From a virus (taxonomy: Duplodnaviria; Caudoviricetes): a stretch of DNA of 62,078 nt. The DNA lies in IMG/VR virus record IMGVR_UViG_3300034104_006372, positions 1 through 62,078 of that record; one strand, 5' to 3'. This document shows, piece after piece, positions 6,231-22,341 of the stretch; position 1 is the stretch's first letter, and every line of letters begins with the position of its first letter. The position numbers were made by a program, and so were the translations under genes. The notes below the pieces were generated by a model. That model had not been told where the DNA came from, searched no databases, and worked only from the letters and a program-made list of their open reading frames with translations.

Positions 6231-6238
6231 TATAAATA
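6231..6238 (-). promoter_or_regulatory. putative late promoter TATTTATA
   Basis: Recurrent motif upstream of phoH. Confidence 0.6.
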
Positions 6239-6245
6239 TAACAAT

Positions 6246-6294: not shown

Positions 6295-7920
6295 TTAAAG
6301 GGTGTTCAATCCGTTAATTTCAATTTTGCCATAGAATTCAGGACGTACCATCTTCTTAGCGTAACGAGTCAATAGACCTTTTCTTGGAGTAAAGGTATCT
6401 GGATCGTACACAAGTGGAGTCATGATCAATGGAATATAAGGAGAGAATACAGCACCAGTCTCAAGGAACTGAGCACCTCTAAATCCTAACAAGATTTGGT
6501 TTTCAAGCATGTAAGGGTTTTTGTAAACCTTAATCTTACCACCGCCTAAAGCACCAATTTTCTGTACTCCGAATGCGTAAGTTGACTTTTCAACATCACC
6601 ATCAACATCACCTGCAAATCCAGGGATAGATTCGATGATTGTAGAAACAGCTGGAGACAATACCATGAAGTTTGCACCACCACGAAGAGTTTTCTGGTGA
6701 ATAATGTTGCTTAACTTCTGGATTTTAGTTCCAAGAGTTTGGAACCACTGACCTTGGCTGTTATAGAAGCCTAAGTTAGAGAACGTTCCGTTAGATCCGT
6801 TATCAACGATAGCAACGTTGTTAACTGCAGACCATACTTCAGTTCCAGCAGCAGCAGAATCCATCAACATATCCAAGATTTCAAGGTCAATTTCCAAAGA
6901 AATGTACTCAGAAAGGATAGAAGTCAATTCAGCTTCAGCATCAAGAGCATGGTAAGCATTAAGATCTTGAGCAAATTCTGGAGTCCATACAGCCTTCAAT
7001 TTACGAGTTTTAGCAACGATAGCAGAAGATTTCATCTGTACGTTGATTTCAGGGATTGAAATTGGGTTGTTATTGCTGTTCAATGCAGTGTTTCCATCTT
7101 CAAAATCACCTCTGTATTGGTCAGTTGGTTGCTTTGAGAAAGTTACAGTTACCAAAGAAGATTGAACTGGAGCTTGAGAACCAGAAACGATAAATACTAA
7201 GTTAGATCCAACAACTTTAGTGAATTGTGGCAATTGAACCGCACCAGTAATAGAACCAGTAGTCAAAGTAAATGCTCTAATACCTTCAGCATCATATCCA
7301 CTTAAGCCAGATAAAGCTACGCTAACGGTCTTGTAACCACCAGCAACTACAGAAGCAGAGTAGTCAGAATCAAATAACATGTCAGACCATGTAGCAGATC
7401 CAGTAGTACCAGTTACTACAGAAGCAGTGTTGTTAATAGAATATCCGAATCGACCAGCACCGTATAAACCACCAGCATTTGTGTTACCAAATGGTTGTTC
7501 TGCTGCGCTAGAAGAACCGTATAAAGAGTTACCAGCAGTAAATGGAGCTTTTGTAGTTCCATACTGGAAGTCAAGATAGAATACTAGACCAGAAGGTAAG
7601 TTCATTGGCTGAACAGAAACGAATTCTTTCGCTGCAATTTGACCAAATACTTTTCTTACCAATGGAAGAGCAACTCCTGCCCATTGTTCACCCACACCTG
7701 CAGTGAATGTACCTTGAGAAGCAGTACCACCACCAGTTTGAGATGTTTCAACTACTAATTGCTTAGCTTGGTTTTCTAAGATGATACTCATGTTGTTCTT
7801 ATGTGTACCAGCCAAACCTTCTAGCAATCCTGTTTTTTCCCACTTGCTAGCTAATCTAGCGGCATCACTCTGTACAGAGTGATATGGGTTTGCGCTTTCT
7901 AAAAGAGATTGTAAGCTCAT
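6295..7920 (-). CDS. major capsid protein (T4 gp23-like)
   Basis: VSVQPMNLPSGLVFYLDF, AKTRKLKAVWTPEFAQDL, PYIPL, TRYA motifs. Confidence 0.95.
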   Translation of the reverse strand: MSLQSLLESANPYHSVQSDAARLASKWEKTGLLEGLAGTHKNNMSIILENQAKQLVVETSQTGGGTASQGTFTAGVGEQWAGVALPLVRKVFGQIAAKEFVSVQPMNLPSGLVFYLDFQYGTTKAPFTAGNSLYGSSSAAEQPFGNTNAGGLYGAGRFGYSINNTASVVTGTTGSATWSDMLFDSDYSASVVAGGYKTVSVALSGLSGYDAEGIRAFTLTTGSITGAVQLPQFTKVVGSNLVFIVSGSQAPVQSSLVTVTFSKQPTDQYRGDFEDGNTALNSNNNPISIPEINVQMKSSAIVAKTRKLKAVWTPEFAQDLNAYHALDAEAELTSILSEYISLEIDLEILDMLMDSAAAGTEVWSAVNNVAIVDNGSNGTFSNLGFYNSQGQWFQTLGTKIQKLSNIIHQKTLRGGANFMVLSPAVSTIIESIPGFAGDVDGDVEKSTYAFGVQKIGALGGGKIKVYKNPYMLENQILLGFRGAQFLETGAVFSPYIPLIMTPLVYDPDTFTPRKGLLTRYAKKMVRPEFYGKIEINGLNTL

Positions 7921-7956: not shown

Positions 7957-9264
7957 TTATTTGATACCAGCTAGCTTCTGCCATCTGGCAACCATTGGAT
8001 CAACTTCTACAATTGGTTGTTTGCTTTCGCTAATAAACCCTGTAGCTTTTGAAGCACTACCTTTGATTTCATTCATCATAGAAGTTTTAACAGTTTTAGA
8101 TGTCATTCCTTCGTTCAATGTTTCAAAGATAACTTTAGCTTCTTTTACAGATGAAGCCTTGTCAAAAGCCTTCAATACTCTAAGTTTTTGGCTTTCGTTA
8201 AGGTTTTTGGAATTGAAGATTTTGTTAGTGTACAAAAGTTTAGCGTTCAACAAATTAACTTCTTGAAGTTCTTTCTTAAGTTCTTCAATTTCGTTCATTT
8301 CGTCTTCAACTTCTGATACTCTTTCTGTGTTAATTCCAGATGCTTTAGCTGTATCTTCAATATCGTTTGCTAATTCTGCTCCTTTTGCACCAAGTTTACC
8401 TGATTTAAGTACTCGCATCAGTTTTTCAATAGCAAATCCCGATCCAAAAATTGATGCTACTCCACCAACTATTATTGGTAATGAAATTTCAAAAGGAATA
8501 GCACTAGGGTCAGTTTTTATAATTTGTAAAAGCTGTTGTCCTATATCCTGAAGCATTGCTGCATCAATTTCTTGAAGAGGAGTTTTAGTTTCTTCAACTT
8601 CTTCACCTTCGTTAACGGCATAAGCGGAAGTAGTTTGTCCTACTTTTGTTGGGGCTAACTTCTCTAAAGTAGTACCTCTTGCAGGATTATTTTTCTCATT
8701 CCAACTTACTTCGTCCATTTCGTCTAATTCCTCCATGTCGCCCATTTCTTCTTCAGCTTCCATGTCGCCCATCTCGGCTTCCATTTCTTCTCCAGCTTCC
8801 AATTCACCTGCAGCTACCATGTCGGCAATTACATCCTCGATAAAAGATTTAAGATCATCTTCGGTCATGTCTTCTAGGTCGATTTCTACGTCTTCCATTT
8901 CGCCAGCTTCCATTTCGCCTTCTTCTCCGGCTTCCATTTCATCTTCAGCTTCATACATTTCTTTTTTGTCTTCACCTTCTTCAAGTTCCGCAAGGATTTC
9001 GTTCAAATCGAATTCTTCTTCGATTTCATCCTTCATCTCATTTACTTCAACTTCTTTCATCGTGTCTTCCTCTTTAGCTTTCATGGCTTCTTTAACGTCT
9101 TCGTCTTCGTCTTCGTTATCCATTGCTTCTAATTTAAGGGCCAACATTTCTTTCAGACGTGGAGCAAATGCTTCTTCTAAAGCAGCTTTTGCGTTTGCAA
9201 TAGCAGTTTCTTTAACAGCTTTTGCATCAGCGATTGCCTCTTTAAGCAAGTCTCTGTTTGTCAT
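7957..9264 (-). CDS. prohead core/scaffolding protein (likely start MTNRDLLKEA at 9264)
   Basis: Highly acidic coiled-coil protein between protease and MCP; ends RWQKLAGIK. Confidence 0.8.
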   Translation of the reverse strand: MTNRDLLKEAIADAKAVKETAIANAKAALEEAFAPRLKEMLALKLEAMDNEDEDEDVKEAMKAKEEDTMKEVEVNEMKDEIEEEFDLNEILAELEEGEDKKEMYEAEDEMEAGEEGEMEAGEMEDVEIDLEDMTEDDLKSFIEDVIADMVAAGELEAGEEMEAEMGDMEAEEEMGDMEELDEMDEVSWNEKNNPARGTTLEKLAPTKVGQTTSAYAVNEGEEVEETKTPLQEIDAAMLQDIGQQLLQIIKTDPSAIPFEISLPIIVGGVASIFGSGFAIEKLMRVLKSGKLGAKGAELANDIEDTAKASGINTERVSEVEDEMNEIEELKKELQEVNLLNAKLLYTNKIFNSKNLNESQKLRVLKAFDKASSVKEAKVIFETLNEGMTSKTVKTSMMNEIKGSASKATGFISESKQPIVEVDPMVARWQKLAGIK

Positions 9265-9397
9265 TTGTCCTAAAATTTTGTTTAGTGAAATACGTTTATT
9301 AGATAGTAACGTAATAATATAAATTAAAAATATGGTGCTATATAGCGGGGATAGCACATTTACGATTATACGTATATTAGGATTTTTCAAAACGCGA

Positions 9398-9419
9398 AAA
9401 GCCCTCCAGAGAGGGCTTT
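9398..9419 (-). terminator. intrinsic terminator after the prohead protease gene
   Basis: AAAGCCCTC-TCTG-GAGGGCTTTT. Confidence 0.7.
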
Positions 9420-9477
9420 GGTCTTAGGAGACTATCCTAAGAGGGGCACATCCTTCGGTAGCGTCCGTTGGGGAGTA

Positions 9478-10089
9478 TTAAAATATTGGGCAACTGCCTT
9501 TAGAGCAGAGTATTTCGTGTATAATGCTATTTACTTTATTGTAGTTTGCAGTAGGATATTCTTTACCTTCTCGCAATACTGACATAAATGAGCCTGGATT
9601 GGATGGGGTAGAAACAAAATCCCAACATAGTAATTCGAAATCATCTTGTACTTCCATTACATTACCTCTTTGCTCTAATGAACCCATTCCTCGGGAAGAT
9701 ACACCTACAGTGATGTTGTTATGGATTAATGCTTGTAAAATTTGACCAGATGGAGTATCAAGTATTTCAATTTTACCCATTACATTATCTCCATCCCACC
9801 AGTAATCGGAAATGATGTGAGATACATTTTTTAGGTTAATAATTTGGGATTCAGGGTGGTCTAATTCACCTATAGCACGTCTTTGTTTGATTTGCTCGGA
9901 ATATTTTTTCATTTCACGATCCCACAGATCACGAGCATAATATCTACCATTACCATTTTTAACCTCAGCTGTAGCTAGTATACCTACTACTATTAGAGGT
10001 TTCTTTACCCCACCAACATTTTCAGTTAGTGGGGCAGCAGAAATTTTAATAGGATGGGTTTCTATAAGTAATTGCTTATTCATTATCAA
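9478..10089 (-). CDS. prohead core protease (T4 gp21-like)
   Basis: NGNGRYY, GELDHP, GVSSRGMGS, WDFVSTPS motifs. Confidence 0.92.
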   Translation of the reverse strand: MIMNKQLLIETHPIKISAAPLTENVGGVKKPLIVVGILATAEVKNGNGRYYARDLWDREMKKYSEQIKQRRAIGELDHPESQIINLKNVSHIISDYWWDGDNVMGKIEILDTPSGQILQALIHNNITVGVSSRGMGSLEQRGNVMEVQDDFELLCWDFVSTPSNPGSFMSVLREGKEYPTANYNKVNSIIHEILCSKGSCPIF

Positions 10090-11548
10090 ATGAGGATTCG
10101 TCTACCATTTCTTTGGTATATTTTTTACCACCAGTCATTTTTCCGTACATAGCCTCCATCTTAGCTTTAGTTTTTTCTAAGATTTTGATTTCTTTTTGCA
10201 TTTCTTTTACTTTAACTTTATCTACTAATTCAGCTAGATTAGCATCTTCTTGGATCATGCTTAATCTTTCCATTTTAGCAGAAATCATTTCGCTAACTCT
10301 ATCTAATTTAGCTTCCATAGCAACGATTCCAGCTTGGGTATCGATTTCGGCTAGGTCAGCATCTAAAGATTCTTTTTTAACTTTCTTTTTTTCGGGTTTT
10401 GGTTCAGCTTCTTCAACATTTTCAACTTCAGCTGTTATTTCTACTTCTTCACCAATTGCATTTTCGTTAATAGATTGGATTTTAGTTTCTAGATCGCCAA
10501 TTGAGTTTTCTAAATCATCTAATTGTTCTTGATACCAATCACCTGATGCAGCAAATTCTAGATCTGTTTCTTTTTCCATAGCAGAAATCAAATCAAAATA
10601 TGCCTTTTTAAGCATGTTTAACTTTTGTGTTAAAGTTTGCTTCTTATTAATTACTTTTTGATCAGGAGCAACACCTGCTTTTTTCTGCATTTGAAGCATT
10701 CTGAGTTGAGCCATTTTCTCTTCAAAGTCAGAATCTTCACTTAAACTTTTGCCTCCTTTACCTTTAATTATCTGGTTAGCTGCTGCTTGCAATTCTGCAT
10801 CGTGTTTTTTAAACCATTGAACTACATCTTCGTTTTTCTTCATAGCAACTCTTCTTTGAGCACCACTGTCTATATAATCAGTGTCAAAATCGTACCATCT
10901 CATTATTTTTACAGCTAAATCTTCAGCAGAAGTAGAAAGTGGGTTTGTAATTTCTTCTTTTACCAAAGATTCTTTAACCATTTTCTTTAGCTTATCAGAA
11001 TAGCCAGATGAAGCATATTTTCCAGATACCTCTTCCATTTTTGTTTCTTGATATCCTAATCCTTTAACACCAAATGCAGCATTTTTCATATAGTACTGTC
11101 CGTCTTTAGCTAAGTTTTTTTCTACAATTTTACGAAGCTCGTCTAATGTTTTGTCTGGGTTTTCTCTGCCTTCAAAATATAGACCATTCAATACTTCTTG
11201 ACCAATTTGGTTGTCAAGATTAGTTTTGTTTTTATAGTCGTAGTTATGATCTTGAATGTCTTCTACTTCTTTGGTTGTTTTTTTCTCTACTGCTTTAGCT
11301 TCTTCAGCTAAAAATTGAGCGAATTTATTTTCCCAAGCTGTTTTTGGAGAAGCCTCAATTGTATTGATTGGTTTTAAATCAACATAATTTTCGGAAATCA
11401 CACCACGTGTTTTTAACATTTTAGATGCTTCTTCAAATCCCATTGGATTTGTTAGCATGTTAGGGAATTGCTTTTTAGCCTCAGTAAGGAATATACCCTT
11501 GTGACCTTTTCCCTCTTTAATCAAATTGTATTGTTCTTGTAGAGTCAT
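10076..11548 (-). CDS. acidic head-core/internal protein
   Basis: In the head operon; E/K-rich; many [ILV]-x-E sites. Confidence 0.6.
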   Translation of the reverse strand: MTLQEQYNLIKEGKGHKGIFLTEAKKQFPNMLTNPMGFEEASKMLKTRGVISENYVDLKPINTIEASPKTAWENKFAQFLAEEAKAVEKKTTKEVEDIQDHNYDYKNKTNLDNQIGQEVLNGLYFEGRENPDKTLDELRKIVEKNLAKDGQYYMKNAAFGVKGLGYQETKMEEVSGKYASSGYSDKLKKMVKESLVKEEITNPLSTSAEDLAVKIMRWYDFDTDYIDSGAQRRVAMKKNEDVVQWFKKHDAELQAAANQIIKGKGGKSLSEDSDFEEKMAQLRMLQMQKKAGVAPDQKVINKKQTLTQKLNMLKKAYFDLISAMEKETDLEFAASGDWYQEQLDDLENSIGDLETKIQSINENAIGEEVEITAEVENVEEAEPKPEKKKVKKESLDADLAEIDTQAGIVAMEAKLDRVSEMISAKMERLSMIQEDANLAELVDKVKVKEMQKEIKILEKTKAKMEAMYGKMTGGKKYTKEMVDESSFDNE

Positions 11549-11793
11549 TATTCTTCTCCTTTTAGTAAAATTTCTATATCGTTTATGTAATCGTTAATTA
11601 AATCCGTTCCTTTTACTACTGTATAACTGGTTGGGTTTTCTCTATAGTATGCTATAGTTTCAATTTTACCTTGTCGCAGTAGTTTTTTTATGTCTTCAAG
11701 TCTAGCTTCTATAGAATCAAATGCCATGATGCGTTGATTATGGAATTTTTTTAAGGTTTCATCCTCTTGTTCTTTAATTCTATACTTATACAT
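11548..11793 (-). CDS. small head-associated hypothetical protein
   Basis: ORF translationally coupled to the next gene. Confidence 0.65.
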   Translation of the reverse strand: MYKYRIKEQEDETLKKFHNQRIMAFDSIEARLEDIKKLLRQGKIETIAYYRENPTSYTVVKGTDLINDYINDIEILLKGEE

Positions 11794-11794
11794 A

Positions 11795-12100
11795 TTAAAA
11801 TAAGTTTTTAACTTCTAGACCAGAGCCTTTCTGCACATAGTTTCCTTTTTTATCTTTAGGAACCAGCTTGTATTGGAATTTCTTAACGTAGTAGTTATCT
11901 TTAACACCTTCGGGTCCTGCTTTAGGGCCTGGTCCTAAAGTAGCACCTACATTTTCTTCAACAGGTGTATATCCTAGTTTTTTTAGCTCTTTGGGCATTT
12001 TAACTTTTTTAGCAAATGCGTATTTAGTTAAATAACCACCTGCTCCACCCGAGGTGGACATTTCTTTTAGCTTATCGGATATTTTATATTTGTACCCCAT
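11795..12100 (-). CDS. small head-associated hypothetical protein
   Basis: ORF; LKEMSTSGGAGGY segment. Confidence 0.65.
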   Translation of the reverse strand: MGYKYKISDKLKEMSTSGGAGGYLTKYAFAKKVKMPKELKKLGYTPVEENVGATLGPGPKAGPEGVKDNYYVKKFQYKLVPKDKKGNYVQKGSGLEVKNLF

Positions 12101-12953
12101 TTGCTTTTCTAATTTCTTGAACTAGTTCATAGTATTGCATTAAATCCACTAAATGATCATCATTAACTTTAGCAGTTTTGTCAAGCTCAACTAAATGTTT
12201 AGCTATTTCTTCAACTTTAATTTTGGTAGCTGGATCTTGGATTGTTTTAATGCTCTTGCTTAAATGTTCTTTTAGTTCAGCAATTTTAGTGTTGTAAAAT
12301 TCTCTTAAATGTGGGGCAGAGTCTACAGAATTGATAAATTCTTTTAAGATTTGTTTTTGTTCAATAGAAATAGAATCATATTTCTCGTTGAATTTCTCTA
12401 AAAGAATCTTGTATGTGAGAATTCTTAAATCTTTGTCGTATGCTTGAAATTCTTGTATTACGTTTTCTTTTGAATCTTGTGATTTAAGTTCCTGCTTGGT
12501 TAAAAATTCTAATAATGTAATTTTACAATCAACCATTTGAGCAGGAGCAACATAAGAAGCACCACTTACACCTTCAATCAACATATACAAAGAAGCTAGT
12601 TCTTTATAATTTTTAATTTTAATGTTAAAAAATGTATCTAAATCGTAGTGGGATTTAATTTCTTTGATTAGATTGTATTTCTGTCTCTTTAAAGTACTTT
12701 TATTTAAGTTAACAGAAGATTCTAAAATGGTACTAACGACAGTATTTGCTCTGCTTTCGTTTAATACTTTAGATTTTAGAATAGATTCATATAGTTTATA
12801 TTCTCTACCTAGTTCACTTTTGACAAAATATTTTTTCATAATGTCAATAGCGGGTGAATCTACTCCTTTTAAGGTATCTATAGTTACCTGTCTAACAAGT
12901 AACTCAAATAATATACCCGTGTTTTTGTATTTGCTGTGCTTGATTTTCATCAA
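12084..12953 (-). CDS. hypothetical head-module protein
   Basis: Helical ORF directly downstream of the portal gene, with a late motif. Confidence 0.7.
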   Translation of the reverse strand: MMKIKHSKYKNTGILFELLVRQVTIDTLKGVDSPAIDIMKKYFVKSELGREYKLYESILKSKVLNESRANTVVSTILESSVNLNKSTLKRQKYNLIKEIKSHYDLDTFFNIKIKNYKELASLYMLIEGVSGASYVAPAQMVDCKITLLEFLTKQELKSQDSKENVIQEFQAYDKDLRILTYKILLEKFNEKYDSISIEQKQILKEFINSVDSAPHLREFYNTKIAELKEHLSKSIKTIQDPATKIKVEEIAKHLVELDKTAKVNDDHLVDLMQYYELVQEIRKANGVQI

Positions 12954-12968
12954 AGAAATATATTTATT

Positions 12969-12976
12969 TATAAATA
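12969..12976 (-). promoter_or_regulatory. putative late promoter TATTTATA
   Basis: Recurrent motif. Confidence 0.65.
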
Positions 12977-12987
12977 TTAAAGAAATC

Positions 12988-14889
12988 TTATCCCCTCAAC
13001 TGATTTTCATCTAGTAACGAAGTATCATCTTTGTCCTGTTCAAATATCAGTTTCTTCTTGTCTATTTTAGAAAACATATCCTTGTTTCTTAAGAAAGCAA
13101 CTTGGGCATTTTCAAGAGCCATACCACTTTTGTTGGTATCTGTTCGGCTGTCTAAAGAATCGTTTTTATCAGTATCTTTCATTCTCTTAACACCCAAACG
13201 ATCTTTACCAAAATTGCTATCTTGTTTTCCAATGTTGGAGATGGAATCTTTTGGTCTACCTAATGTTTCATCCTCATCGTATCCACGTGGAACGTTTTTA
13301 GGATCTGAATCGTTTCTACCTTTACCGTATAATGAAGCTAGGTCATGTGGTGTACCATAAGATTTACCACTTTCAACTGGGTCATTACCTTCGTTTTCAA
13401 TTTGGGTAACTCGGAATTGACGTTTAGCATCTTCTCTAATTAGATCTCTATATTCATCATACTGGTCTTCAGATAAATGGAATATGTTGTCGTAAATCCA
13501 ATCAGTAGGTAATAGTTTCTGGTCTAGCAATGATTGAGCTAAATCAGCTTTAGATTTCATTAATTCAATTTTCTCTTGTTCAAATATAATAGAAGGAGTT
13601 TGCATAGACAACTCAAAGTTTGTCAAAGCCTCATCTCTATATCCTTGAGAATATAAGTGTACTAAAGCAATTTTGTTAAGTTCTGATACTAGGATGCGTT
13701 GAATACGATCAATTGTACGAGCAAATCTAATATCTTCGGCCGCTAATGTTGCTTTACCTTCTATATTTTCGTCATATCCTAAAAATGCTTTAGGTACTTT
13801 AAGGGCAGCAAATAATTTATTTCTTAAATATTCAACATCTTGAATACCATCATAATCTAAACCTTTAGTGGTATCAATTTTAGTTGTTGTATCATTTCCA
13901 CGAATCGGGATATAAAAATCCTCCATCATGTTTTGCATATTGTATTTCAAATTGTAATCTCCGGTTTGCTTATCAACATATGGAGTACGTTTCATGTTTG
14001 AAATAGTTTTTTGCATAAACGCATCTACCTCATTTGGAGGAATAGAACCTACGTTTACATAGAATATACGTTTTTCTGGAGCACGAGCGATTCTATGGAT
14101 TAACATAGCATCTTCCATCAAAGTATATTGCTTAAATAGTTTACGAGCGGGTTCAATATATGAACGACCATATGGAAGATAATTAGTATCTCCAATTAGT
14201 CTAAAGTGGGCCATCTCATAGTTATCAAACATTATACCACCTGTTTGGTCTGTACCTTGCCCTGTAACCGCATATAGTCCAGAATTGGCATTTACTAGGC
14301 CATCAGGATTATATCTAAATTTAACCTCAGATGGATTTTGACGATTAAATCCTTCTAATCTTTCAATATGGAATGCAGTGTATGGAATTACATTATATAC
14401 ACCATATTTTTCTGCTATTTCTAGTTTTAAGAAAAAATCACCATATTTGGACATTTGTCTAACCCAAGCCCACAAATTAAATTCGATGTTTAAAACATCA
14501 TAAAATAAATTATACAGAATTCTTTGAATATTTTCGTTAGAGGAGCGAATAGATAATACTTCGCCCATATCATTTTTCAAAGTACATTCATCAGCTATAA
14601 TATCCAAAGCAGAAGCTATAATAGCATCTTGATCCATTACATCATATTCTGAATATAATTGGGGTCTTAAGTATTTGTAGTTAAAGTTGAATTGGGAACC
14701 ATATAATGAGCTAGGATTAGTAGAATAGATTCTATTGTACCTATCCATAAGAGAATTTGTTTGAATTGCTCCATTGGATTGGATTTGATTAGTATCCATT
14801 ACACTAATTTGATTACCTCCAACATTTCGGATGATTACATCTGTTGAAAATAATCGTTGTAGTCTACTAAATAAGCCGGTGTTTGCCAT
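12988..14889 (-). CDS. portal protein (T4 gp20-like)
   Basis: LMEDAMLIHRIARAPEKRIFYVNVG, MMEDFYIP, KLFAALKVPK, EDIRFAR. Confidence 0.95.
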   Translation of the reverse strand: MANTGLFSRLQRLFSTDVIIRNVGGNQISVMDTNQIQSNGAIQTNSLMDRYNRIYSTNPSSLYGSQFNFNYKYLRPQLYSEYDVMDQDAIIASALDIIADECTLKNDMGEVLSIRSSNENIQRILYNLFYDVLNIEFNLWAWVRQMSKYGDFFLKLEIAEKYGVYNVIPYTAFHIERLEGFNRQNPSEVKFRYNPDGLVNANSGLYAVTGQGTDQTGGIMFDNYEMAHFRLIGDTNYLPYGRSYIEPARKLFKQYTLMEDAMLIHRIARAPEKRIFYVNVGSIPPNEVDAFMQKTISNMKRTPYVDKQTGDYNLKYNMQNMMEDFYIPIRGNDTTTKIDTTKGLDYDGIQDVEYLRNKLFAALKVPKAFLGYDENIEGKATLAAEDIRFARTIDRIQRILVSELNKIALVHLYSQGYRDEALTNFELSMQTPSIIFEQEKIELMKSKADLAQSLLDQKLLPTDWIYDNIFHLSEDQYDEYRDLIREDAKRQFRVTQIENEGNDPVESGKSYGTPHDLASLYGKGRNDSDPKNVPRGYDEDETLGRPKDSISNIGKQDSNFGKDRLGVKRMKDTDKNDSLDSRTDTNKSGMALENAQVAFLRNKDMFSKIDKKKLIFEQDKDDTSLLDENQLRG

Positions 14890-14904
14890 ATTGTTAATTA
14901 TTGT

Positions 14905-14912
14905 TATAAATA
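14905..14912 (-). promoter_or_regulatory. putative late promoter TATTTATA
   Basis: Recurrent motif upstream of the portal gene. Confidence 0.65.
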
Positions 14913-14915
14913 TTG

Positions 14916-16490
14916 TTAAAATAGCCAGCTTATATCTTCTTTCCCACCATGTTGGTTTTCAATATAGTATGGGTTATCATTTTTGTTGGCATAATATGCC
15001 CCTTGATATGAAGTTCTATTAACTGTTATGTTGTTTAATGCGCTGCGTGTTAAATCTAATCCTCTTTGTCTATATTTCAAAGCTGTATCTCGAATATACA
15101 TTGCTATTCCAAAAGCCATTACTAAGTCATCGTTATAGCCTTGTTGTGCTTCTGCTCTACCATTTTTCCAGATAAATACTTTCATTTCCTCTATTAATCT
15201 TTTTGATTGAATAGTTACAGATTTTTCGGAAATATATTCTTGGAACTTACCTACCACCATAGGGCGGGTACGAGCTGACATTGTAAATCCTGCTACTGCT
15301 TTTGACGTATCCATATATTTGTCAAAATACGAATCAGCATTTGACTCGGCACGGGGAGAATAATAGAGATTGGAATAATTTCTATCTATTGCTACTTGTA
15401 TAGTTGCCCACCCAATATTAGCATTTTCTATCACTAGTAATGCTTCATTATATTCTGTAGCTATACCTACTAGCAAATGTCCAAATTCTTTAGTTCCAAT
15501 TTGACCTTTATATTCGGCTACCTGTACGTTCGATTCTACATCTATAACGTGGAATGTAGAGTAATCTTTACCATCACCACGAGCTACGTCAGCTACTACT
15601 ATATAACTTCGAGTATAATCTGGTGATTCCCATACCCACAGATTTTGGTCTGCACCTCGTTTTTCTAGTGGTTCTTTAATGTATGTTTTTTCGTAGTATT
15701 CTAAATATTCATTATAGAACACAATATCCCCAGAGGTAGAAAAATCACAGTCACATTCTTGGGCTGCTAATCTAGGATCACCTAACAGTTCATCTTGTCT
15801 ATCTCTCCATGTTTGGTCTCGTTCTGGATGGACCATCCATGGTAATTTAATAGGAATAAAATCGTTTTCTGCAGATTCTGCTTTAACCCATGTTTGATGG
15901 AACCAGTTACCAGTGCCAAAAGGGGTAGATAATACAATAGCACCACCACCCGTTGCTAGGGTTTGTTGAGCGGAAGCCCATGTTTCACCAATATTTTCGA
16001 TGAAGGCTGCCTCATCTATTATTAGCAAAGATACTGCTTCTGATCGTGCGGAATCGGAATTTGAAGATTTAGCTTGTATTTTAGATCCATTAACTAAATG
16101 TAGTGACAGTTTATTGTTTTCTACTGCATCTACTTTTAACCATGATGGTAAATTTTCCCACATGAATTTTACCTTAGATACTATATTACGAGCGGTTGCT
16201 TGAGTAGTTGCTAGAGCTAGTACGTTTTTATCTTTATGAAAAAGCATTAACCACGTAGCATATCCTGCAGCTAAAGTAGAAATACCTAGCTGACGGGATT
16301 TTAGTAGAATAGTGTAGTCGTGTTTTTTAAATAGGGTAAGTACCTTTTCCTGGAATGGATATAGGTTAAATTGTATTCTACCCCTTTGTGGGTGTTGGAT
16401 ATAACAATATTTGCGCATAAAGTGAACCGGATCTTGGGAACACTTTATATATTCTTGTTTTATTATCTCCTTTATATTAGGATTGGACAT
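14916..16490 (-). CDS. terL: terminase large subunit (T4 gp17-like)
   Basis: KSRQLGIST Walker A, LLIIDEAAF Walker B, ADVARG..DYS and DDLVMA nuclease motifs. Confidence 0.95.
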   Translation of the reverse strand: MSNPNIKEIIKQEYIKCSQDPVHFMRKYCYIQHPQRGRIQFNLYPFQEKVLTLFKKHDYTILLKSRQLGISTLAAGYATWLMLFHKDKNVLALATTQATARNIVSKVKFMWENLPSWLKVDAVENNKLSLHLVNGSKIQAKSSNSDSARSEAVSLLIIDEAAFIENIGETWASAQQTLATGGGAIVLSTPFGTGNWFHQTWVKAESAENDFIPIKLPWMVHPERDQTWRDRQDELLGDPRLAAQECDCDFSTSGDIVFYNEYLEYYEKTYIKEPLEKRGADQNLWVWESPDYTRSYIVVADVARGDGKDYSTFHVIDVESNVQVAEYKGQIGTKEFGHLLVGIATEYNEALLVIENANIGWATIQVAIDRNYSNLYYSPRAESNADSYFDKYMDTSKAVAGFTMSARTRPMVVGKFQEYISEKSVTIQSKRLIEEMKVFIWKNGRAEAQQGYNDDLVMAFGIAMYIRDTALKYRQRGLDLTRSALNNITVNRTSYQGAYYANKNDNPYYIENQHGGKEDISWLF

Positions 16491-16496
16491 ATTATT

Positions 16497-16901
16497 TTAT
16501 TTTAAAATAAATAATACTGCCAATATACCTAAGATTCCTGTACCTGCAACCATTTTTCCTTTTACTTGTTCTTTCTTTAAATCTCGTTGCAATCTACTTG
16601 ATAACTCTTGTGATAAAGCCAATTGTTCAGATCTAGTATCTATAATGGATTTATAGTTGAATATCTGAGTATTTAGATTTGTGATGATGCTATCCTTAAA
16701 TACAATTTTCTGCTCTAGCAATTTAACTTTATCTTGTGTAAGGAATAGTTCTTGTTTTGCCCCATCCCCTACTATAAGATCTTTAATTACTAGACGAGCT
16801 ATTGGCTTTTCTAAGCGAATCAAAGTAATATCGGTAGCGGTTTGTGAAAAACTCTTTGAGCTCATCATCAGTATAGCTATCAACACTACTAACTTTTTCA
16901 T
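16497..16901 (-). CDS. signal peptide + coiled coil + C-terminal TM protein (possible spanin partner)
   Basis: MKKLVVLIAILMMSSKSFSQ signal-like N-terminus; hydrophobic C-terminus; overlaps the upstream gene in another frame. Confidence 0.5.
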   Translation of the reverse strand: MKKLVVLIAILMMSSKSFSQTATDITLIRLEKPIARLVIKDLIVGDGAKQELFLTQDKVKLLEQKIVFKDSIITNLNTQIFNYKSIIDTRSEQLALSQELSSRLQRDLKKEQVKGKMVAGTGILGILAVLFILK

Positions 16902-17151
16902 TAACTTCATTTCTTAAGGTATTTATACTATTATCTTTTAAATCAAGTTCTTGATCCAATTTAGATATTTGTATGTTTAAGGTATCAATTTTCAAAGACA
17001 AATCATCGTTCACATCTTGGAGTGAATCGACCTTTTCATCTAGTTTTTCGATTTTTAAATTATATTCTTCAACGTAATCTTCTTTTTTATTGAAGAAAAA
17101 TAAAATAAAAATACAAACTATTACTACAACTAATATATTAAAATATTTCAC
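16783..17151 (-). CDS. N-terminal TM + coiled-coil protein (i-spanin/Rz-like candidate)
   Basis: Hydrophobic residues ~4-20 followed by a heptad coiled coil. Confidence 0.5.
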   Translation of the reverse strand: MKYFNILVVVIVCIFILFFFNKKEDYVEEYNLKIEKLDEKVDSLQDVNDDLSLKIDTLNIQISKLDQELDLKDNSINTLRNEVNEKVSSVDSYTDDELKEFFTNRYRYYFDSLRKANSSSSN

Positions 17152-17654
17152 TTTTCTTTAGGGAATACAATAGCTTCTAGTTCTTTCTTAAGATCAGTTT
17201 TCTTTCTTAAGTCAGCTAACATTTTTTCTTTTTCAGCTCCTTCAGCTTCTTTATATTTTTTACCTAAAGATTTCATTTCTTTAGTTAATCTAGCTAACTC
17301 ATCTTTTGCTTTAGCTATACCTTTAGTGGTTTTAGCAATATTTTTTAACTCAGATTTAGTTGGTCCTTTATCTTTATCTCCATCTTCATCTTCAACCTTA
17401 TAATAATCATCCTTTACTTCTACATCCTCCTCATCCTTTTTAGCTTCTTTGATTTTTTTAGAACCCATAGCTATACTATTTACATTAGGATCAGATTTTA
17501 GCTTATTGATAGTAGCAGTATCTGTGGGGTCAATATCTAATACCTTATCAGACATTGCTGGATTTTTGTAGTCTATAGTAGTTTTTTGAGGGGCTTCAGA
17601 TAACATTTTAACGATTTGCTCCTTAATGTATTCCTTAAGTTCTGATTTTTTCAT
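17148..17654 (-). CDS. putative internal head protein
   Basis: MKKSELKEYIKEQI..LSE N-terminus; late motif upstream. Confidence 0.6.
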   Translation of the reverse strand: MKKSELKEYIKEQIVKMLSEAPQKTTIDYKNPAMSDKVLDIDPTDTATINKLKSDPNVNSIAMGSKKIKEAKKDEEDVEVKDDYYKVEDEDGDKDKGPTKSELKNIAKTTKGIAKAKDELARLTKEMKSLGKKYKEAEGAEKEKMLADLRKKTDLKKELEAIVFPKEK

Positions 17655-17679
17655 GATGGTATTAATATTTATATTTTGT

Positions 17680-17687
17680 TATAAATA
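17680..17687 (-). promoter_or_regulatory. putative late promoter TATTTATA
   Basis: Recurrent motif. Confidence 0.65.
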
Positions 17688-17689
17688 TA

Positions 17690-18220
17690 TTAGGGATTAA
17701 TAACATTCAGAATCTGCTGTATTCGTTCCTCTGTTGAACCACTGATAGTGTGAGCAGATTTAAGTTTATAAGAATATGATTGCAATAAGTTTTGTATACT
17801 TACATCAATAAGATGTCTATATGTTGAATTAGTTTCACGCACACCATTATCCTCTATTGGTAATCCTTCAGAAGAAATATAAAATATGTAATCATATTCT
17901 CCCAAGAAACTAGATGCATATTGTTCGTATTTATCTTTATCTAAAACATTAATAGATTGAGCATTAGCTGTAAATGCCATAACATCTATAATAGTACGAT
18001 CTGTAATTAGATTATCATGCATTAATTCAGCACAACGTTCCGCCAAAAACACTGTTTGACCTTTTAATGTAGAATCCGTATTTAATGGAATACCTAAATC
18101 TCTTAAATATTTTGAACGTTCAGTAGCAAATTTATATTTTTTAAATTGTGGGAGTTTTTGTAAAGCATTTACCAATGTAGTTTTTCCTACACTCATTGTT
18201 CCTGTCAATCCTATCTTCAT
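17690..18220 (-). CDS. P-loop nucleoside/nucleotide kinase (NadR/Ttd14 AAA_28-like)
   Basis: GTMSVGKTT, ITDRTIID, YDYIFY, EDNGVR motifs. Confidence 0.75.
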   Translation of the reverse strand: MKIGLTGTMSVGKTTLVNALQKLPQFKKYKFATERSKYLRDLGIPLNTDSTLKGQTVFLAERCAELMHDNLITDRTIIDVMAFTANAQSINVLDKDKYEQYASSFLGEYDYIFYISSEGLPIEDNGVRETNSTYRHLIDVSIQNLLQSYSYKLKSAHTISGSTEERIQQILNVINP

Positions 18221-18224
18221 ATTC

Positions 18225-18644
18225 TTATTTGTTTAATAGCCAACTTGATGATTGAACTTTAGCTCCCAATCCATCAATTAATTCTATTTCATTATCAACG
18301 CAAACCTGTGTTTCTGGAATGGTATCATTGTTTTGATCACCCCCATTTGCAAATGCAAGTCTATATTCTCCCCCGTAAATGTCCGAAAGATATTTCAGGG
18401 TAGCACATTGTGTTTTGTCTTTATCTATAGAAATCATACAATTATCTACAATCCTTAAATTACGGATGATCATCAAACGTTCAAGTTCGTCTTGAAATTC
18501 TTTAGATCCCTTTAGTTCCCGTTGGTGATCAGAGTTAATAATCACAAATAGTTTGTGATTATAACCTTTTGCTCTGTGGAAAAGTTCAAGATGACCTTTA
18601 TGGAGCGGGTTAAAATACCCGCTCACTATAACCATTTTTTTCAT
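18225..18644 (-). CDS. HxGH cytidylyl/adenylyltransferase (TagD/RfaE-II-like)
   Basis: SGYFNPLHKGH, NGGD, QSSS motifs. Confidence 0.85.
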   Translation of the reverse strand: MKKMVIVSGYFNPLHKGHLELFHRAKGYNHKLFVIINSDHQRELKGSKEFQDELERLMIIRNLRIVDNCMISIDKDKTQCATLKYLSDIYGGEYRLAFANGGDQNNDTIPETQVCVDNEIELIDGLGAKVQSSSWLLNK

Positions 18645-18648
18645 ACGT

Positions 18649-18912
18649 TTAATTACGATAACCGTCTTCCAATTGGGACTTCATTGATGGATTTTTGTAC
18701 CACGGCAAACCTTCTTGATCTCTATGAGCTTGCTCAAATTGTTCTTTAGTGTACTGGATTCCATGAATATAGTATTCGGCTCGTTTTGTATCGCCTTCAG
18801 GGATTAAAGCAGGACCGTCCCAGTTATGCAATTTACCATCTTTAATGTGAGCGATGGTACCATCAGCTTTCTTTAGTCTTTTAACTACGATTGGTTTTTT
18901 AGTATTGCTCAT
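18649..18912 (-). CDS. hypothetical protein
   Basis: ORF; KLHNWDGPALIP motif. Confidence 0.7.
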   Translation of the reverse strand: MSNTKKPIVVKRLKKADGTIAHIKDGKLHNWDGPALIPEGDTKRAEYYIHGIQYTKEQFEQAHRDQEGLPWYKNPSMKSQLEDGYRN

Positions 18913-18934
18913 AATTCAATATTTTTATCAATGT

Positions 18935-18964
18935 TAAATATACGAACTCTATTTAGGAGTTCAA
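18935..18964 (-). promoter_or_regulatory. host-type (Bacteroidota) promoter TTG-N19-TATATTTA
   Basis: Matches the recurrent -33/-7-like element. Confidence 0.5.
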
Positions 18965-20254
18965 AATGTCTTCAGCAACATAAATCCCTTGTGCACCACT
19001 CACCGTTATACCTCTAGCAGATAATGCGTCTCCCACAAAGTGAACATTGGGGAACTCGGTCAAGGCTAGGTTAGTATAATCGACGAGCGGCTCAGGTGAC
19101 AAATATTTTACTTCAGGAACATAAATGCCCCAGTCATGTTCAAGTGTTGGAAACACTTTTTTCATATCTTCAATAAAATCTTCAATATATTTAAAATATC
19201 CTTTAAATGCCGGCTTTATAATATTTTCTAATTCTCTAGAACTAAAGGCAACTGCAGATACTGTTTCGCCTTCAGAAGTTAAAGATGGACGTCTAGAAGG
19301 AGAATAGTATAAACCTGTTCCACTAGTATTTACATTAGATACTAAATTTCTAGACCATTCAAATGGATCTTCAATACCTGGAATTTCCATTAAAATGCCA
19401 AAATTGGTCATGTTGTTGCGGAATTCCTCGCCCTTCTTAGCGTGGCCGTTATAGCTCACATTTCCGTATGTTTCCTCTACTGCTACGTAAGCAGCGTTGT
19501 TATTTGTGCAGAATGAACGAAGCGAAACACCTGTGTCCTCAAACTTACGATACAATTTAAAATCGTAGGATATGTCAATTAGTTTTTGGAAGTGTTTTTG
19601 TGGTGCTTCAAATCGAACACCAATTTGTACTGGCTTTGGCTCATCTGGTAGATTGTATTGTTGAGCTAGTTCTTGAGCAAAATCAATACCTGATTTGCCT
19701 ACTGCAAATATAAGTGTATCGTATTTTAAATCCGCATTGTGGGTATAAATTCTGTTATTGTTAAAGTCAATATCTTCAACTTGAGTTTCCCATTCAAATC
19801 TAACGCCTTTATCAACTAAATATTGATACCATGCTTTAGCAATTTCATGTAGGAAATTAGAACCAATATGCCATACAGGAAACATTCTCAAGCCAAAGTA
19901 TGGTTTGATAAACTCGGGTTCCTCTTGTGGATCCGAACAAAAAATTTCTTCTGGTTTAGGGTGGAAACGTCTAAAGTTAGCAATTACTTGATCCATCAAT
20001 TCCATTGCTTTATCCTCTCCACAATATTTTGATAATTGACCTCCAATAGCAGTGTGATAAGTTAGCTTACCATCACTCCATCCACCTGCTCCTAGCATAC
20101 CTGTCATTACTTCTTCAGGTAAGCGGTTATGTGGATCACTTCCTTTGTCTATAATTGTGATTAATTCTCCAGGATATCCATTGTCTACTAATTTAGTTGC
20201 GGCATTAATTCCTGCTACTCCAGCTCCTACAATTACGATTTTATCTTGTTTCAT
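18953..20254 (-). CDS. FAD-dependent oxidoreductase (uncharacterised family)
   Basis: GAGVAG Rossmann motif, GAGGWSDGKL, IGVRFE, VGDALS..GI. Confidence 0.85.
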   Translation of the reverse strand: MKQDKIVIVGAGVAGINAATKLVDNGYPGELITIIDKGSDPHNRLPEEVMTGMLGAGGWSDGKLTYHTAIGGQLSKYCGEDKAMELMDQVIANFRRFHPKPEEIFCSDPQEEPEFIKPYFGLRMFPVWHIGSNFLHEIAKAWYQYLVDKGVRFEWETQVEDIDFNNNRIYTHNADLKYDTLIFAVGKSGIDFAQELAQQYNLPDEPKPVQIGVRFEAPQKHFQKLIDISYDFKLYRKFEDTGVSLRSFCTNNNAAYVAVEETYGNVSYNGHAKKGEEFRNNMTNFGILMEIPGIEDPFEWSRNLVSNVNTSGTGLYYSPSRRPSLTSEGETVSAVAFSSRELENIIKPAFKGYFKYIEDFIEDMKKVFPTLEHDWGIYVPEVKYLSPEPLVDYTNLALTEFPNVHFVGDALSARGITVSGAQGIYVAEDILNS

Positions 20255-20274
20255 GTTGCATTATAAATTATTTG

Positions 20275-20305
20275 TAAATATACGAAAAGAAGTGACGCAA
20301 TCCAA
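20275..20305 (-). promoter_or_regulatory. host-type promoter TTG-N20-TATATTTA overlapping a terminator
   Basis: 20-nt spacer, as in four other copies. Confidence 0.6.
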
Positions 20306-20320
20306 GTTGAATTGCGCCAC
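20285..20320 (-). terminator. intrinsic terminator ending the head-cargo operon
   Basis: GUGGCGCAAUUCAA/UUGGAUUGCGUCAC stem followed by UUCUUUU. Confidence 0.75.
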
Positions 20321-20324
20321 AGCT

Positions 20325-20368
20325 GTATAGTTTTTGTCTCTTTTGAGCGACCGGCTATGAATCGGTCT
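20325..20368 (-). ncRNA. candidate H-type pseudoknot RNA (preQ1-I-like architecture)
   Basis: GACCG-AUUCAUAGC-CGGUC hairpin, CUC-AAAA-GAG, then ACAAAAACUAU tail able to pair with loop AUAG. Confidence 0.35.
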
Positions 20369-20379
20369 GTATGTTTATT

Positions 20380-20952
20380 TTAGCTATATATAAATTTAAT
20401 AACATCATCAAGTTTATCTTTAGCTTTTGGATTAGTTTTGGCGTAATTCTTTAGTTTATCTACAATAAAATATCTTTTTACTACATCAGAATCAGCTGCA
20501 TTTTTTACATTTTGAATGAGAGTTTTAGCCATTGGGTCATTGCTATCCATAGCTAAAAAGAAAGATGCGGGGTCAAATTTGTATTCTTCATCTGAAGGTA
20601 ATTCATCCAAAGTTACAGTAGCTCCAAACTTGATATCTCCGTTAGGGAGTAATTCTACGTTAATGTCAGGATTACCTTCCAAAGTATCTTTGCCACCTAC
20701 AGAAGCTAGATATTTTGATAGAGCGTTAAATTCATCAGCATTAGGGTATGCTTCTTCATCTCCATATTCTTCTTTCTCCCATACACCTTCAAAATATTCT
20801 CCTTCTTCCATTTCATCGCTTACACTAGCATCCCACATGCCAGATATATAATCTTCAAATTGTTCAATATTTTCGTTTAATTGTTCTTCAGTTATGATAC
20901 CCGCTAATCTCTGCATTCTGCGGAATTGTTCATTTAAAATTTGCTTTGCCAT
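20380..20952 (-). CDS. putative internal head protein, paralog 1
   Basis: N-tag MAKQILNEQFRRMQRLAGIITEEQLNE. Confidence 0.75.
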   Translation of the reverse strand: MAKQILNEQFRRMQRLAGIITEEQLNENIEQFEDYISGMWDASVSDEMEEGEYFEGVWEKEEYGDEEAYPNADEFNALSKYLASVGGKDTLEGNPDINVELLPNGDIKFGATVTLDELPSDEEYKFDPASFFLAMDSNDPMAKTLIQNVKNAADSDVVKRYFIVDKLKNYAKTNPKAKDKLDDVIKFIYS

Positions 20953-20965
20953 TGTTTTGTTATTT

Positions 20966-21523
20966 TTAGCTATTTATAAACTCAATAGCAGCATCAAGTT
21001 TACCTTTAACTTCTGGATTAGCTTTAGCGTGATCTTTTAGTTTGTTTATAATAGTAGATCTTTTAGATAGATCAGAATCAGCTACTTTCTTTATGTTTTG
21101 GATAAAAGATTTTGCATTTGGATCTTTACTATCCATAGCTGAAAAGTAAGATGCAGCATTGAATTCGTTTTCTTCATTTAATTGTCCAGAAGCTAACTCT
21201 CTGATCATATCAAATAATTCAGACGCATCCATATCATCTTCTAGATCAACACCTAAAGTTCTTTCATTAATAGCATTAATTAACTCTTCAGCAGAAGAAA
21301 CATTCATTTGAGAATTTAAATTGCTATAATCTTCTTCCTCAGCCTCAATATCGTCCAACATTTCTAATTCAGATTGGAGGAAATTAGCTTTGATAGTATC
21401 AAAGTTTTGGCTAACAAACTTAACCATCTCACTTGCTACATTTTCATTTAATTGCTCTTCGGTTATGATACCTGCTAGTTTTTGCATTCTGCGAAATTGT
21501 TCGCTTAAAATTTGCTTTGCCAT
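20966..21523 (-). CDS. putative internal head protein, paralog 2
   Basis: N-tag MAKQILSEQFRRMQKLAGIITEEQLNE; C-terminal ~65 aa similar to paralog 1. Confidence 0.75.
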   Translation of the reverse strand: MAKQILSEQFRRMQKLAGIITEEQLNENVASEMVKFVSQNFDTIKANFLQSELEMLDDIEAEEEDYSNLNSQMNVSSAEELINAINERTLGVDLEDDMDASELFDMIRELASGQLNEENEFNAASYFSAMDSKDPNAKSFIQNIKKVADSDLSKRSTIINKLKDHAKANPEVKGKLDAAIEFINS

Positions 21524-21535
21524 TATTTTATTAGT

Positions 21536-22078
21536 TTATTTTACTGTTCCGCCTTTAGCTGTTTCTTTAAACTTAAAGGTTAAGATATACCAAAATCCAT
21601 CTTGCTGACTAAAGCCATATATCATATTTGGATATTTTTCAAAAATTTGTTTTAATATTTCATTACCCAAATTATCAACATATTTCTTTATTTCTGGATT
21701 GTTAAACCAATTTCCTTTTGCTGATATTGCGCTTGAAGTGATGTTTTGTCCAAATTTCTCTGCTGCTTTATATGACCAATCATTACCCCCACCTACCATT
21801 ACTTTAGCAACAGATTCTGCAGTTATTGCTACCAATACTCTTTCATCTGGTTGGTCTGTTACTATTATTTGGACTGCTTGATCTCCTTCTCCAATTTTTT
21901 TAGTTTTATCAGTTTCAATCTTACTTCTTAATTCAGGTCGAAATCCCTTACTCTTTAAAAAGGAATAAAGTTGTTTAGACATTTGTTTTAGTTCCAAAAT
22001 ATCCTCATTTAACTGTTCTTCAGTGATAAGACCAGCCAACACCTGCATTCTGCGAAATTGTTCGTTTAGGATTGCCAT
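21536..22078 (-). CDS. putative internal head protein, paralog 3
   Basis: N-tag MAILNEQFRRMQVLAGLITEEQLNE; unrelated body. Confidence 0.75.
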   Translation of the reverse strand: MAILNEQFRRMQVLAGLITEEQLNEDILELKQMSKQLYSFLKSKGFRPELRSKIETDKTKKIGEGDQAVQIIVTDQPDERVLVAITAESVAKVMVGGGNDWSYKAAEKFGQNITSSAISAKGNWFNNPEIKKYVDNLGNEILKQIFEKYPNMIYGFSQQDGFWYILTFKFKETAKGGTVK

Positions 22079-22341
22079 TATTTTGTTATTTGTATTTTTA
22101 AATTAGTATTGCCTTTAATTACTCTATGTATTTGGTATTCCGGTATAAATATACTATCTCCTTTTTGAAGCGCCAAGGGCAACTCATTATCTCTTTGAAG
22201 TTGCCAACCTTCTCCCTCTAATATTTCAATAGTACGATCTTCTTCATCTTGGTGCCAAACTAGCTCCATGGGATCTACTTCAGAACTAAATTCTCGTATA
22301 ACTGAAGTTTGGGTAATTGGGGTGTTTGTGTATGGTTGCAT
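22078..22341 (-). CDS. small cupin-like protein
   Basis: LVWHQDEEDR..EGEGWQLQ..IFIP...HRVIKG. Confidence 0.7.
   Translation of the reverse strand: MQPYTNTPITQTSVIREFSSEVDPMELVWHQDEEDRTIEILEGEGWQLQRDNELPLALQKGDSIFIPEYQIHRVIKGNTNLKIQITK

Follow-up and report, generated by a model that had tools for sequence, protein, structure and literature searches.

Head module and shared motif in the window

The virus record IMGVR_UViG_3300034104_006372 consists of one stretch of DNA of 62,078 nucleotides and nothing beyond it; we analysed this 62-kb stretch as a whole and refer to it as the window. Our subject is a short peptide motif that stands at the extreme C-terminus of the scaffold protein encoded in the window and again, within an N-terminal leader that we name the tag, on the products of three tandem open reading frames (ORFs A, B and C). 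The general form of its core is R-hydrophobic-x-x-L-A-G-I/L. According to Pfam and PHROGs, a run of genes on the minus strand of the window is a T4-type head module. The features needed here are the following.

6295..7920, minus strand: major capsid protein of the Gp23 family (Pfam PF07068, 6.1e-70)
7957..9264, minus strand: scaffold in the gp22 position, acidic, 435 residues, encoded between the protease and major capsid protein genes
7960..8016, minus strand: C-terminal tail of the scaffold, made of P-I-V-E, then VDPMVA, then RWQKLAGIK, with the motif RWQKLAGI at 7963..7986
9478..10083, minus strand: prohead protease of the gp21 family, Peptidase_S77 (PF03420, 3.6e-30; phrog_207, 2.1e-57)
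12988..14889, minus strand: portal protein of the gp20 type (PF07230, 1.4e-69)
14916..16490, minus strand: large terminase
20380..20952, minus strand: tagged ORF A, 190 residues, acidic body; tag (residues 1-27) at 20872..20952, motif at 20896..20919
20966..21523, minus strand: tagged ORF B, 185 residues; tag (residues 1-27) at 21443..21523, motif at 21467..21490
21536..22078, minus strand: tagged ORF C, 180 residues; tag (residues 1-25) at 22004..22078, motif at 22028..22051

The likely start of the scaffold is the ATG at 9264 (the listed ORF opens at an upstream TTG, 9390), and its C-terminus reads ..PIVEVDPMVARWQKLAGIK, followed by the stop. ORF A starts MAKQILNEQFRRMQRLAGIITEEQLNE, ORF B starts MAKQILSEQFRRMQKLAGIITEEQLNE and ORF C starts MAILNEQFRRMQVLAGLITEEQLNE. 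When the entire window is scanned in all six frames, the pattern [RK][MW]Q.LAG[IL] comes up exactly four times, at the scaffold C-terminus and at the N-termini of the three tandem ORFs and nowhere else; residue frequencies lead one to expect 0.00027 occurrences in the 124,158 positions scanned. The N-terminal placement of the tags is secure because there is an in-frame stop within 8 codons of the start codon of each of the three ORFs. An earlier note on this DNA had claimed that the end of the scaffold is reused at the starts of three tandem genes, each copy bracketed by I-L-x-E and Q-L-N-E. The scan confirms the reuse, and the brackets are present on all three tags.

ORFs A and B are paralogues from end to end. 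ORF C has the tag alone in common with them; its body is unrelated and clusters only with that of one other protein, P0032. Therefore, the window holds about three independent placements of the peptide, one at the scaffold tail and two on different bodies. Neither Pfam nor PHROGs assigns a family to the tagged ORFs. An AlphaFold2 single-sequence model of ORF C has a mean predicted local distance difference test score (pLDDT) of 37, too low for use, and a search of the ESM Atlas with the body of ORF C gives no usable match.

The scaffold tail in related phages

By the capsid protein, the closest cultured relative is the Flavobacterium phage vB_FspM_immuto (57.9% identity), followed by the Microcystis phage Mel-JY01 (52.4%), the uncultured 484-kb LR756508 (48.6%) and the Rhodothermus phage RM378 (36.2%); identity to classical T4-like phages is about 27%. 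The gene layout protease-scaffold-capsid is also that of immuto, Mel-JY01 and RM378. The scaffolds end in ..SRWQKLAGIIK (immuto), ..ERMKKLAGIVK (Mel-JY01), ..SRMQKLADIS (LR756508) and ..ERIKRLAGL (RM378). We also gathered 80 IMG/VR loci via the capsid protein, at 68-93% identity. An ORF lies just upstream of the capsid gene in 77 of them, and 75 of these 77 ORFs end in R[MFW][QRK][KQT]LAG[IL]; one of the two exceptions looks truncated, and the other has the variant ..RMKKLAF... In metagenomes the scaffold family is very large: a search for homologues at E<=1e-3 finds 7829 among 8000 scored candidates, and all of the best 120 end in RWQKLAGI(N)K. The motif is thus a conserved feature of the C-terminal end of the scaffold, in 75/77 loci and in 120/120 homologues. 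In several relatives the tail is nearly identical to the tag, as in ..FRRMQQLAGIIKNN and ..RMQKLAGIIK, and a profile made solely from the three N-terminal tags of the window matches the scaffold C-termini of other phages (E 6e-7 and 0.003).

The scaffold of the window belongs to no family in Pfam or PHROG searches. It is of the gp22 type in that its gene lies between those of the gp21 protease and the gp23 capsid protein, and its product is acidic and rich in helices. By BLASTP it has no significant similarity to T4 gp22 (E=28) or to gp22 of the cyanophage ACG-2014b (E 0.04-0.8). The only likeness to other gp22 proteins is in the tail, P-[IL]-V-E followed by A-R-W-x-K. Comparing one genome per lineage outside the clade, we find gp22 C-termini ..AIARWSK in cyanophage ACG-2014b, ..ALTRFAK in phiM19, ..RATRSTR in a Vibrio schizoT4 phage, and ..KVASRF in T4, where the L-A-G-I part is missing. 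The A/T-R-W/F part of the tail may therefore be older than the clade, and the L-A-G-I form would extend that older tail. The immuto scaffold (gp067, 30627..31868) is labelled in GenBank as a 'DNA polymerase phi-like protein', probably a mis-annotation arising from its acidic low-complexity region.

The N-terminal tag as a portable module

Among 50,697 phage records, tblastn with ORF B matches immuto only (four records, three isolates and the RefSeq copy), and only over residues 1-36. The whole immuto genome has the motif at three places: at the end of the scaffold, at the beginning of gp083 and at the beginning of gp230. The bodies of gp083 and gp230 are unrelated to each other and to the tagged bodies of the window. 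When residues 1-40 of ORF B are used in a word-indexed search, 67 proteins are found, and all 67 have the motif N-terminally, at position 11-17, or at position 29 in cases of a probably mis-called start. Together with the three proteins of the window (n=70), their bodies fall into 24 BLASTP clusters.

The profile of the three tags, when compared to 1.84 billion cluster representatives, has matches with E<=1e-3 in 639 clusters (50% identity), of which 44 have E<=1e-10. Among the best 150 of the 639, the motif starts at residue 10-13 in 142, so that the tag runs from residue 1, and at residue 22-29 in 6; in the other 2 it is internal. In the core, M, A and G are invariant (150/150), and Q and F are each found in 149; the flanking Glu is at position -5 in 147 and at position +9 in 145. 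The exact 11-mer F-R-R-M-Q-K-L-A-G-I-I, back-translated and searched against IMG/VR, matches 47 loci, and it is N-terminal in all 44 scored copies (43 full ORFs and one ORF cut short). The tag is therefore a leader conserved at the N-terminus of otherwise unrelated proteins of one lineage, in the manner of a T4 capsid-targeting sequence (CTS). When applied to genomes, a 32-position profile recovers only scaffold tails and misses sites in G001, G003 and LR756508 that a regular expression finds, and we therefore scanned whole records by regular expression.

Some proteins have the motif at the C-terminus or at both ends, such as P0221 (874 residues), P0280 (969 residues) and a 917-residue ORF in the contig G008; P0252 has an N-terminal tag and a scaffold-like C-terminal tail. 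This use at either end fits a docking peptide that would need just a free, flexible terminus. In P0221, P0280 and G008:112288..115041 (L199), the motif at both ends is accompanied by a hydrophobic Ala/Gly-rich segment and by low-complexity Ser/Thr/Pro stretches. A different acidic protein of about 200-250 residues recurs in G010, L138, L143 and L151. It ends in ..ELRRLQRIAGLIK or similar and is distinct from the main scaffold. This protein may be another small core component that resembles a scaffold; the window shows no counterpart of it.

Searches of Pfam and PHROGs find no family for the large both-ends proteins of about 870-970 residues, nor for the tagged or tailed proteins of other contigs tested by both. 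A Pfam search of 102 tagged representatives gives isolated matches only, to a RecA-like domain (P0311), TnsA_N, HD (probably in a fused ORF), PBECR4, and a few weak ones. In some tagged proteins there are hydrophobic segments, rich in Gly and Ala, that resemble those of ejection proteins. Taken with the charge of the bodies, these segments and rare domains are weak hints of cargo function.

Selection on the peptide and direction of evolution

Among the five tags, three from the window and two from immuto, the differences are chiefly at third codon positions, and the DNA upstream of them is not conserved. Over the 18-codon core, the 10 pairs of tags have 68 synonymous against 23 non-synonymous codon differences. 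The synonymous excess and the unconserved upstream DNA argue against an RNA element and against a junction made by recombination at the DNA level: the tag is conserved, and selected, as a peptide.

Tail and tag go together. Of five long contigs with tags, two are complete and have terminal repeats. All five have genes for a related capsid protein (63-90% identity) and for a scaffold with the motif at its end, and their N-terminal tags number 3, 4, 2, 2 and 1, respectively. The pairing of tail and tag is conserved in relatives and is not due to chance. Scans of the complete genomes of RM378 and Mel-JY01 find the scaffold tail and no N-terminal tag. In the 41.6 kb of LR756508 that we examined, two adjacent small ORFs start with ..RLQELAGI and ..RFQELAGV. 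Near the capsid gene tags are few, with one found within 10 kb in only 1 of the 80 loci. From the tails without tags in RM378 and Mel-JY01 and the scarcity of tags near capsid genes, it follows that the tags are a lineage-specific addition and that the tag genes are far from the head genes. This distribution suggests that the scaffold tail came first and the tags later.

Protease-type sites around the motif

The T4 protease gp21 prefers L or I in its cleavage motif. More generally, T4-family prohead proteases cut after the Glu of an x-X-E motif (PMC5694885). The scaffold tails were collected without regard to their flanks, and an [LI]xE site lies upstream of the motif in 71 of 71, mostly as P-I-[IV]-E, at a distance of 5-6 residues in 70 and of 2 residues in one; downstream of the motif there is no such site, since the proteins simply end there. 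For the N-terminal tags the site is on the other side: 144 of 148 have an [LI]xE within 12 residues downstream, compared to 10% of the 12-residue windows in the bodies, a count that is inflated by a search profile that included those flanks. The commonest tag site is I-T-E, which overlaps the end of the motif (114/148). Copies of the motif at the C-terminus of other proteins have an L-x-E just upstream. Whichever the orientation, the sites are thus on the body side of the motif, where they appear placed to free the body.

In the family of ORFs A and B (alignment A4), whole body modules are exchanged or duplicated exactly at Q-L-N-E, T-L-D-E and S-L-N-E junctions. The family looks like a string of modules with cleavage-type linkers, in the way of a polyprotein-like mosaic. 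The density of [LI]xE per 100 residues is 3.7 in the scaffold, 2.1-3.3 in the tagged ORFs and 1.47 on average in the window; it is confounded by Glu-rich composition, and we do not use it as evidence.

A candidate docking peptide for the prohead

We lean towards reading the core of about 11 residues, F-R-R-M-Q-K-L-A-G-I-I, as a terminal docking peptide that would bring proteins into the prohead by mimicking the scaffold tail and that the protease would later remove. The original place of the peptide would be the extreme C-terminus of the scaffold in the gp22 position, kept from RM378 to the window. A sub-lineage would have copied it to the N-termini of many small, mostly acidic, unrelated proteins, and occasionally to C-termini or to both ends. 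The tail would dock the scaffold in the growing prohead, and proteins with the same peptide would be recruited alongside it and co-assembled inside the shell. By analogy with the C-terminal tails of other scaffolds, the likeliest partner would be the inner face or the N-arm region of the gp23-like capsid protein, which makes the Gp23-family protein at 6295..7920 the presumed docking partner in the window. Once the shell is complete, the gp21-family protease, presumably the S77 enzyme at 9478..10083, would cut at the [LI]-x-E on the body side of the motif, that is, at P-I-x-E upstream of scaffold tails and at I-T-E or L-N-E downstream of N-terminal tags. The cut would release scaffold fragments and free the cargo, which would stay in the head and might exit with the DNA.

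The earlier note had gone as far as an address label that docks cargo on the major capsid protein, is clipped by the protease and lets the cargo be injected. The label itself draws support from the conserved terminal module, the S77 protease, the [LI]xE sites on the body side and the T4 precedent. The sharing of the motif, its conservation, its modularity, the selection on the peptide and the arrangement of the sites are direct observations; from them we infer the binding partner and the cleavage, and by inference alone the residence of the tagged proteins in the virion and their injection. A control-free prediction of the complex between the capsid protein (alignment of 45 rows) and residues 1-40 of a tagged protein gives a score of 0.01 (mark 0.32) and is neutral on binding.

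Several observations weigh against a docking peptide of this kind. T4 gp22 lacks the end motif, so that knowledge from T4 does not transfer directly. The bodies are net acidic in 76% of the 102 tagged representatives, unlike the T4 internal proteins, which are basic and associated with DNA. The RecA-like domain of P0311 would be unexpected in a cargo. The counts of sites flanking the tags have the bias already described. Five long contigs gathered from the capsid side (27-55% complete) all have the tail, and only one of them has an N-terminal tag, besides the single locus in 80 with a tag close to the capsid gene. Within genomes, tail and tag variants show no co-variation beyond the invariant core; in G006, for example, the scaffold has RMKKLAGL and the tags have RMQKLAGI. 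Finally, the T4 targeting sequence is described as acting on the scaffolding core and not on the shell (PMC3012670).

This last point leads to a first alternative, in which the peptide is a signal for incorporation into the head that binds the scaffold core or another core component (by self-association of the scaffold, or via the protease or the portal) instead of the capsid protein, with the tagged proteins co-polymerising. We think it unlikely, but a core partner is a live alternative to the capsid protein, and the data presented here are equal for both. A role in cross-linking or core building would suit those proteins that have the motif twice, once at each end, or that join it to a scaffold-like acidic body (P0221, P0280, P0252, and those in G008 and G010), and reviews of T4 put the action of the targeting sequence in the scaffolding core (PMC3012670, PMC5694885). 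The tails of other scaffolds speak for the capsid protein. The C-terminal tails of the P22 and herpesvirus scaffolds contact it at resolved interfaces. That of the 80alpha scaffold does so too (PMC5644958).

The tagged proteins could also be no cargo at all but competitors or regulators of the scaffold-shell contact or of the protease, tuning the timing of assembly, the size of the head or the release of the scaffold. They do share the scaffold tail almost exactly, and the satellite protein CpmB and the 80alpha scaffold compete for one site via a common C-terminal motif (PMC5644958). This remains improbable, as 639 clusters with unrelated bodies are hard to square with a single regulatory role, and the conserved cleavage-type site between tag and body suggests that the body is released.

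Still less probable is an amphipathic helix of general use that has no connection with the inside of the capsid and is directed at a membrane, a chaperone or a host factor, which the scaffold merely happens to use as well. The core does have basic residues and one face that is hydrophobic (F, M, L, I, I), some tagged proteins have Gly/Ala-rich hydrophobic segments, and T4-type proheads assemble on the membrane (PMC5694885). But the near-invariant M, A, G, Q and F fit a specific protein-protein contact better than lipid binding, and such a helix would leave unexplained the link to the scaffold terminus and the orientation of the [LI]xE sites. That the shared sequence is a functionless by-product of recombination between gene ends, a DNA-level shuffling junction, is scarcely credible: the tagged bodies are themselves shuffled at Q-L-N-E or T-L-D-E junctions, but the dominance of synonymous changes (68 vs 23), the third-position differences, the unconserved upstream DNA and the strictly terminal placement of the peptide all go against it.

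Comparison to known capsid-loading systems

The closest known system is that of the T4 internal proteins, which have only a capsid-targeting sequence in common and are processed by gp21 after Glu (PMC3012670, PMC5694885); the earlier note had cited it as a precedent, and rightly so. As published descriptions have it, the T4 CTS (of IPI-III and Alt) is likewise a short, conserved N-terminal leader on diverse proteins. Also common to both are a head module of the gp20/gp21/gp22/gp23 type, a leader that ends, at the level of sequence, at a Glu protease-type site, and genes that lie away from the head cluster. Unlike the T4 CTS, the leader described here is longer (about 22-27 residues), has the scaffold's own C-terminal tail as its core, and is also found at C-termini and at both ends; its repertoire is very large, and its lineage is abundant, almost uncultured and aquatic. 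Mullaney and Black 1996 and Repoila 1994 are reportedly sources on the T4 system.

In herpesvirus, HK97 and P22, C-terminal tails of the scaffold or the protease bind the major capsid protein and have been used to load foreign proteins, and in herpesvirus the capsid-binding tail is clipped by the maturation protease. To our knowledge, these tails are common to the protease and the scaffold only, or are placed artificially on other proteins, and none is a natural N-terminal label on a large repertoire. Fusions to the P22 scaffold, the HK97 protease tail and the encapsulin loading peptides are, like the T4 CTS, precedents for a portable packaging tag, and the use that the earlier note had in mind is thus not new in principle.

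The 80alpha scaffold places its last 16 residues on the N-arm of the capsid protein as an amphipathic helix and an R-I-I-K hook, and CpmB of the satellite SaPI1 shares that tail and binds the same site (PMC5644958). The tail described here is of a similar helix-plus-hook build, with R-W-Q-K-L-A as the helical part and G-I-(I)-K after it. The differences are that in 80alpha the second protein is the satellite's alternative scaffold and the motif is C-terminal on both, whereas here the copies are mostly N-terminal, encoded by the phage and placed on bodies that number in the hundreds; the two tails are not homologous in sequence.

Encapsulin loading peptides are short terminal peptides that bring varied cargo into an HK97-fold shell and that work on heterologous fusions (PMC11866011). 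An encapsulin shell has no portal, terminase, scaffold, maturation protease or DNA packaging. All of these proteins are present here, the portal and the large terminase both being encoded in the window, and the peptide would be removed after loading. The likeness to encapsulins is one of analogy alone.

A literature search with the motif string found no publication that contains it, and one on scaffold mimicry, ejection proteins and targeting found, in the available parts of the publications, nothing that describes this arrangement. Going by titles and abstracts, the literature on immuto deals with DNA modification, polymerases and ecology, with no apparent proteomics study among the publications listed.

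Only for a few model phages is it known in detail how a tailed phage chooses which proteins to enclose and inject. The candidate label described here can be read straight from the sequence, matches the tail of the scaffold itself, and marks hundreds of otherwise unannotatable proteins of environmental phages as candidate capsid cargo. If confirmed, the docking peptide would explain T4-style capsid targeting mechanistically as scaffold-tail mimicry, would give a sequence rule to predict injected proteins in metagenomes, and would provide a short natural tag with a built-in release site for capsid loading. Direct tests are feasible, as immuto (host Flavobacterium sp. LMO8) is in culture and has the same arrangement.

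A broader proposal, which we put forward as tentative and on balance doubtful, is that this abundant, uncultured, aquatic, immuto-related clade of T4-like phages has a natural plug-and-play loading system, in which any protein given a terminal tag and a site would be loaded, freed and delivered with the DNA. The tagged protein would compete with the scaffold for the capsid protein, and either terminus would serve. The tagged families, at least 639 in number and with modules shuffled at junctions of the protease-site type, would then make up a large, rapidly evolving set of effectors for injection, for instance anti-defence proteins or membrane-active ejection proteins, and the system would be a viral counterpart of encapsulin loading peptides, far broader than the internal-protein system of T4.

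Other leaders and elements near the tagged genes

Four ORFs without a family lie between the S77 protease and portal genes. Beside the tagged genes, three ORFs on the minus strand (22727..23140, 23137..23460 and 23457..23963) follow one another and begin with a different leader, M(I)KLL[DQ][IL]LxE. The end of this leader is an L-x-E site, and the leader is also found on different bodies in G007 (3 ORFs) and G009 (1 ORF). It may be another leader of the T4 CTS type, shorter than the first. A third N-terminal pattern, MKK[SP][EQ]LKxx[IV][KR]E[EQ][IL], starts the minus-strand ORFs 17148..17654 and 22356..22697 of the window. It directly precedes the scaffold-tail tag in G007:108719..109009, and it heads an acidic frame of 248 residues ending in the tail motif in G010:29484..30230.

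The word ATATTTATA has 20 copies in the window, compared to 6.3 expected, and 17 of them are on the coding (minus) strand. It is often found 15-40 nucleotides upstream of start codons, as for the portal, ORF 12084, phoH, ORF 5066 and ORF 17148. Copies include the following.

14905..14913: ATATTTATA
12969..12977: ATATTTATA
6231..6239: ATATTTATA
5503..5511: ATATTTATA
17680..17688: ATATTTATA
22144..22152, minus strand: ATATTTATA, 66 nucleotides upstream of tagged ORF C

The word may be a phage promoter element, and the copy at 22144..22152 may be the promoter of the cluster of three tagged genes. Lastly, the neighbouring minus-strand ORFs 2..550 and 909..1934 have a similar N-terminus, M[PA][ST]WKK[VI]IVSGS.., which suggests that they are paralogous structural proteins, possibly fibre-like.

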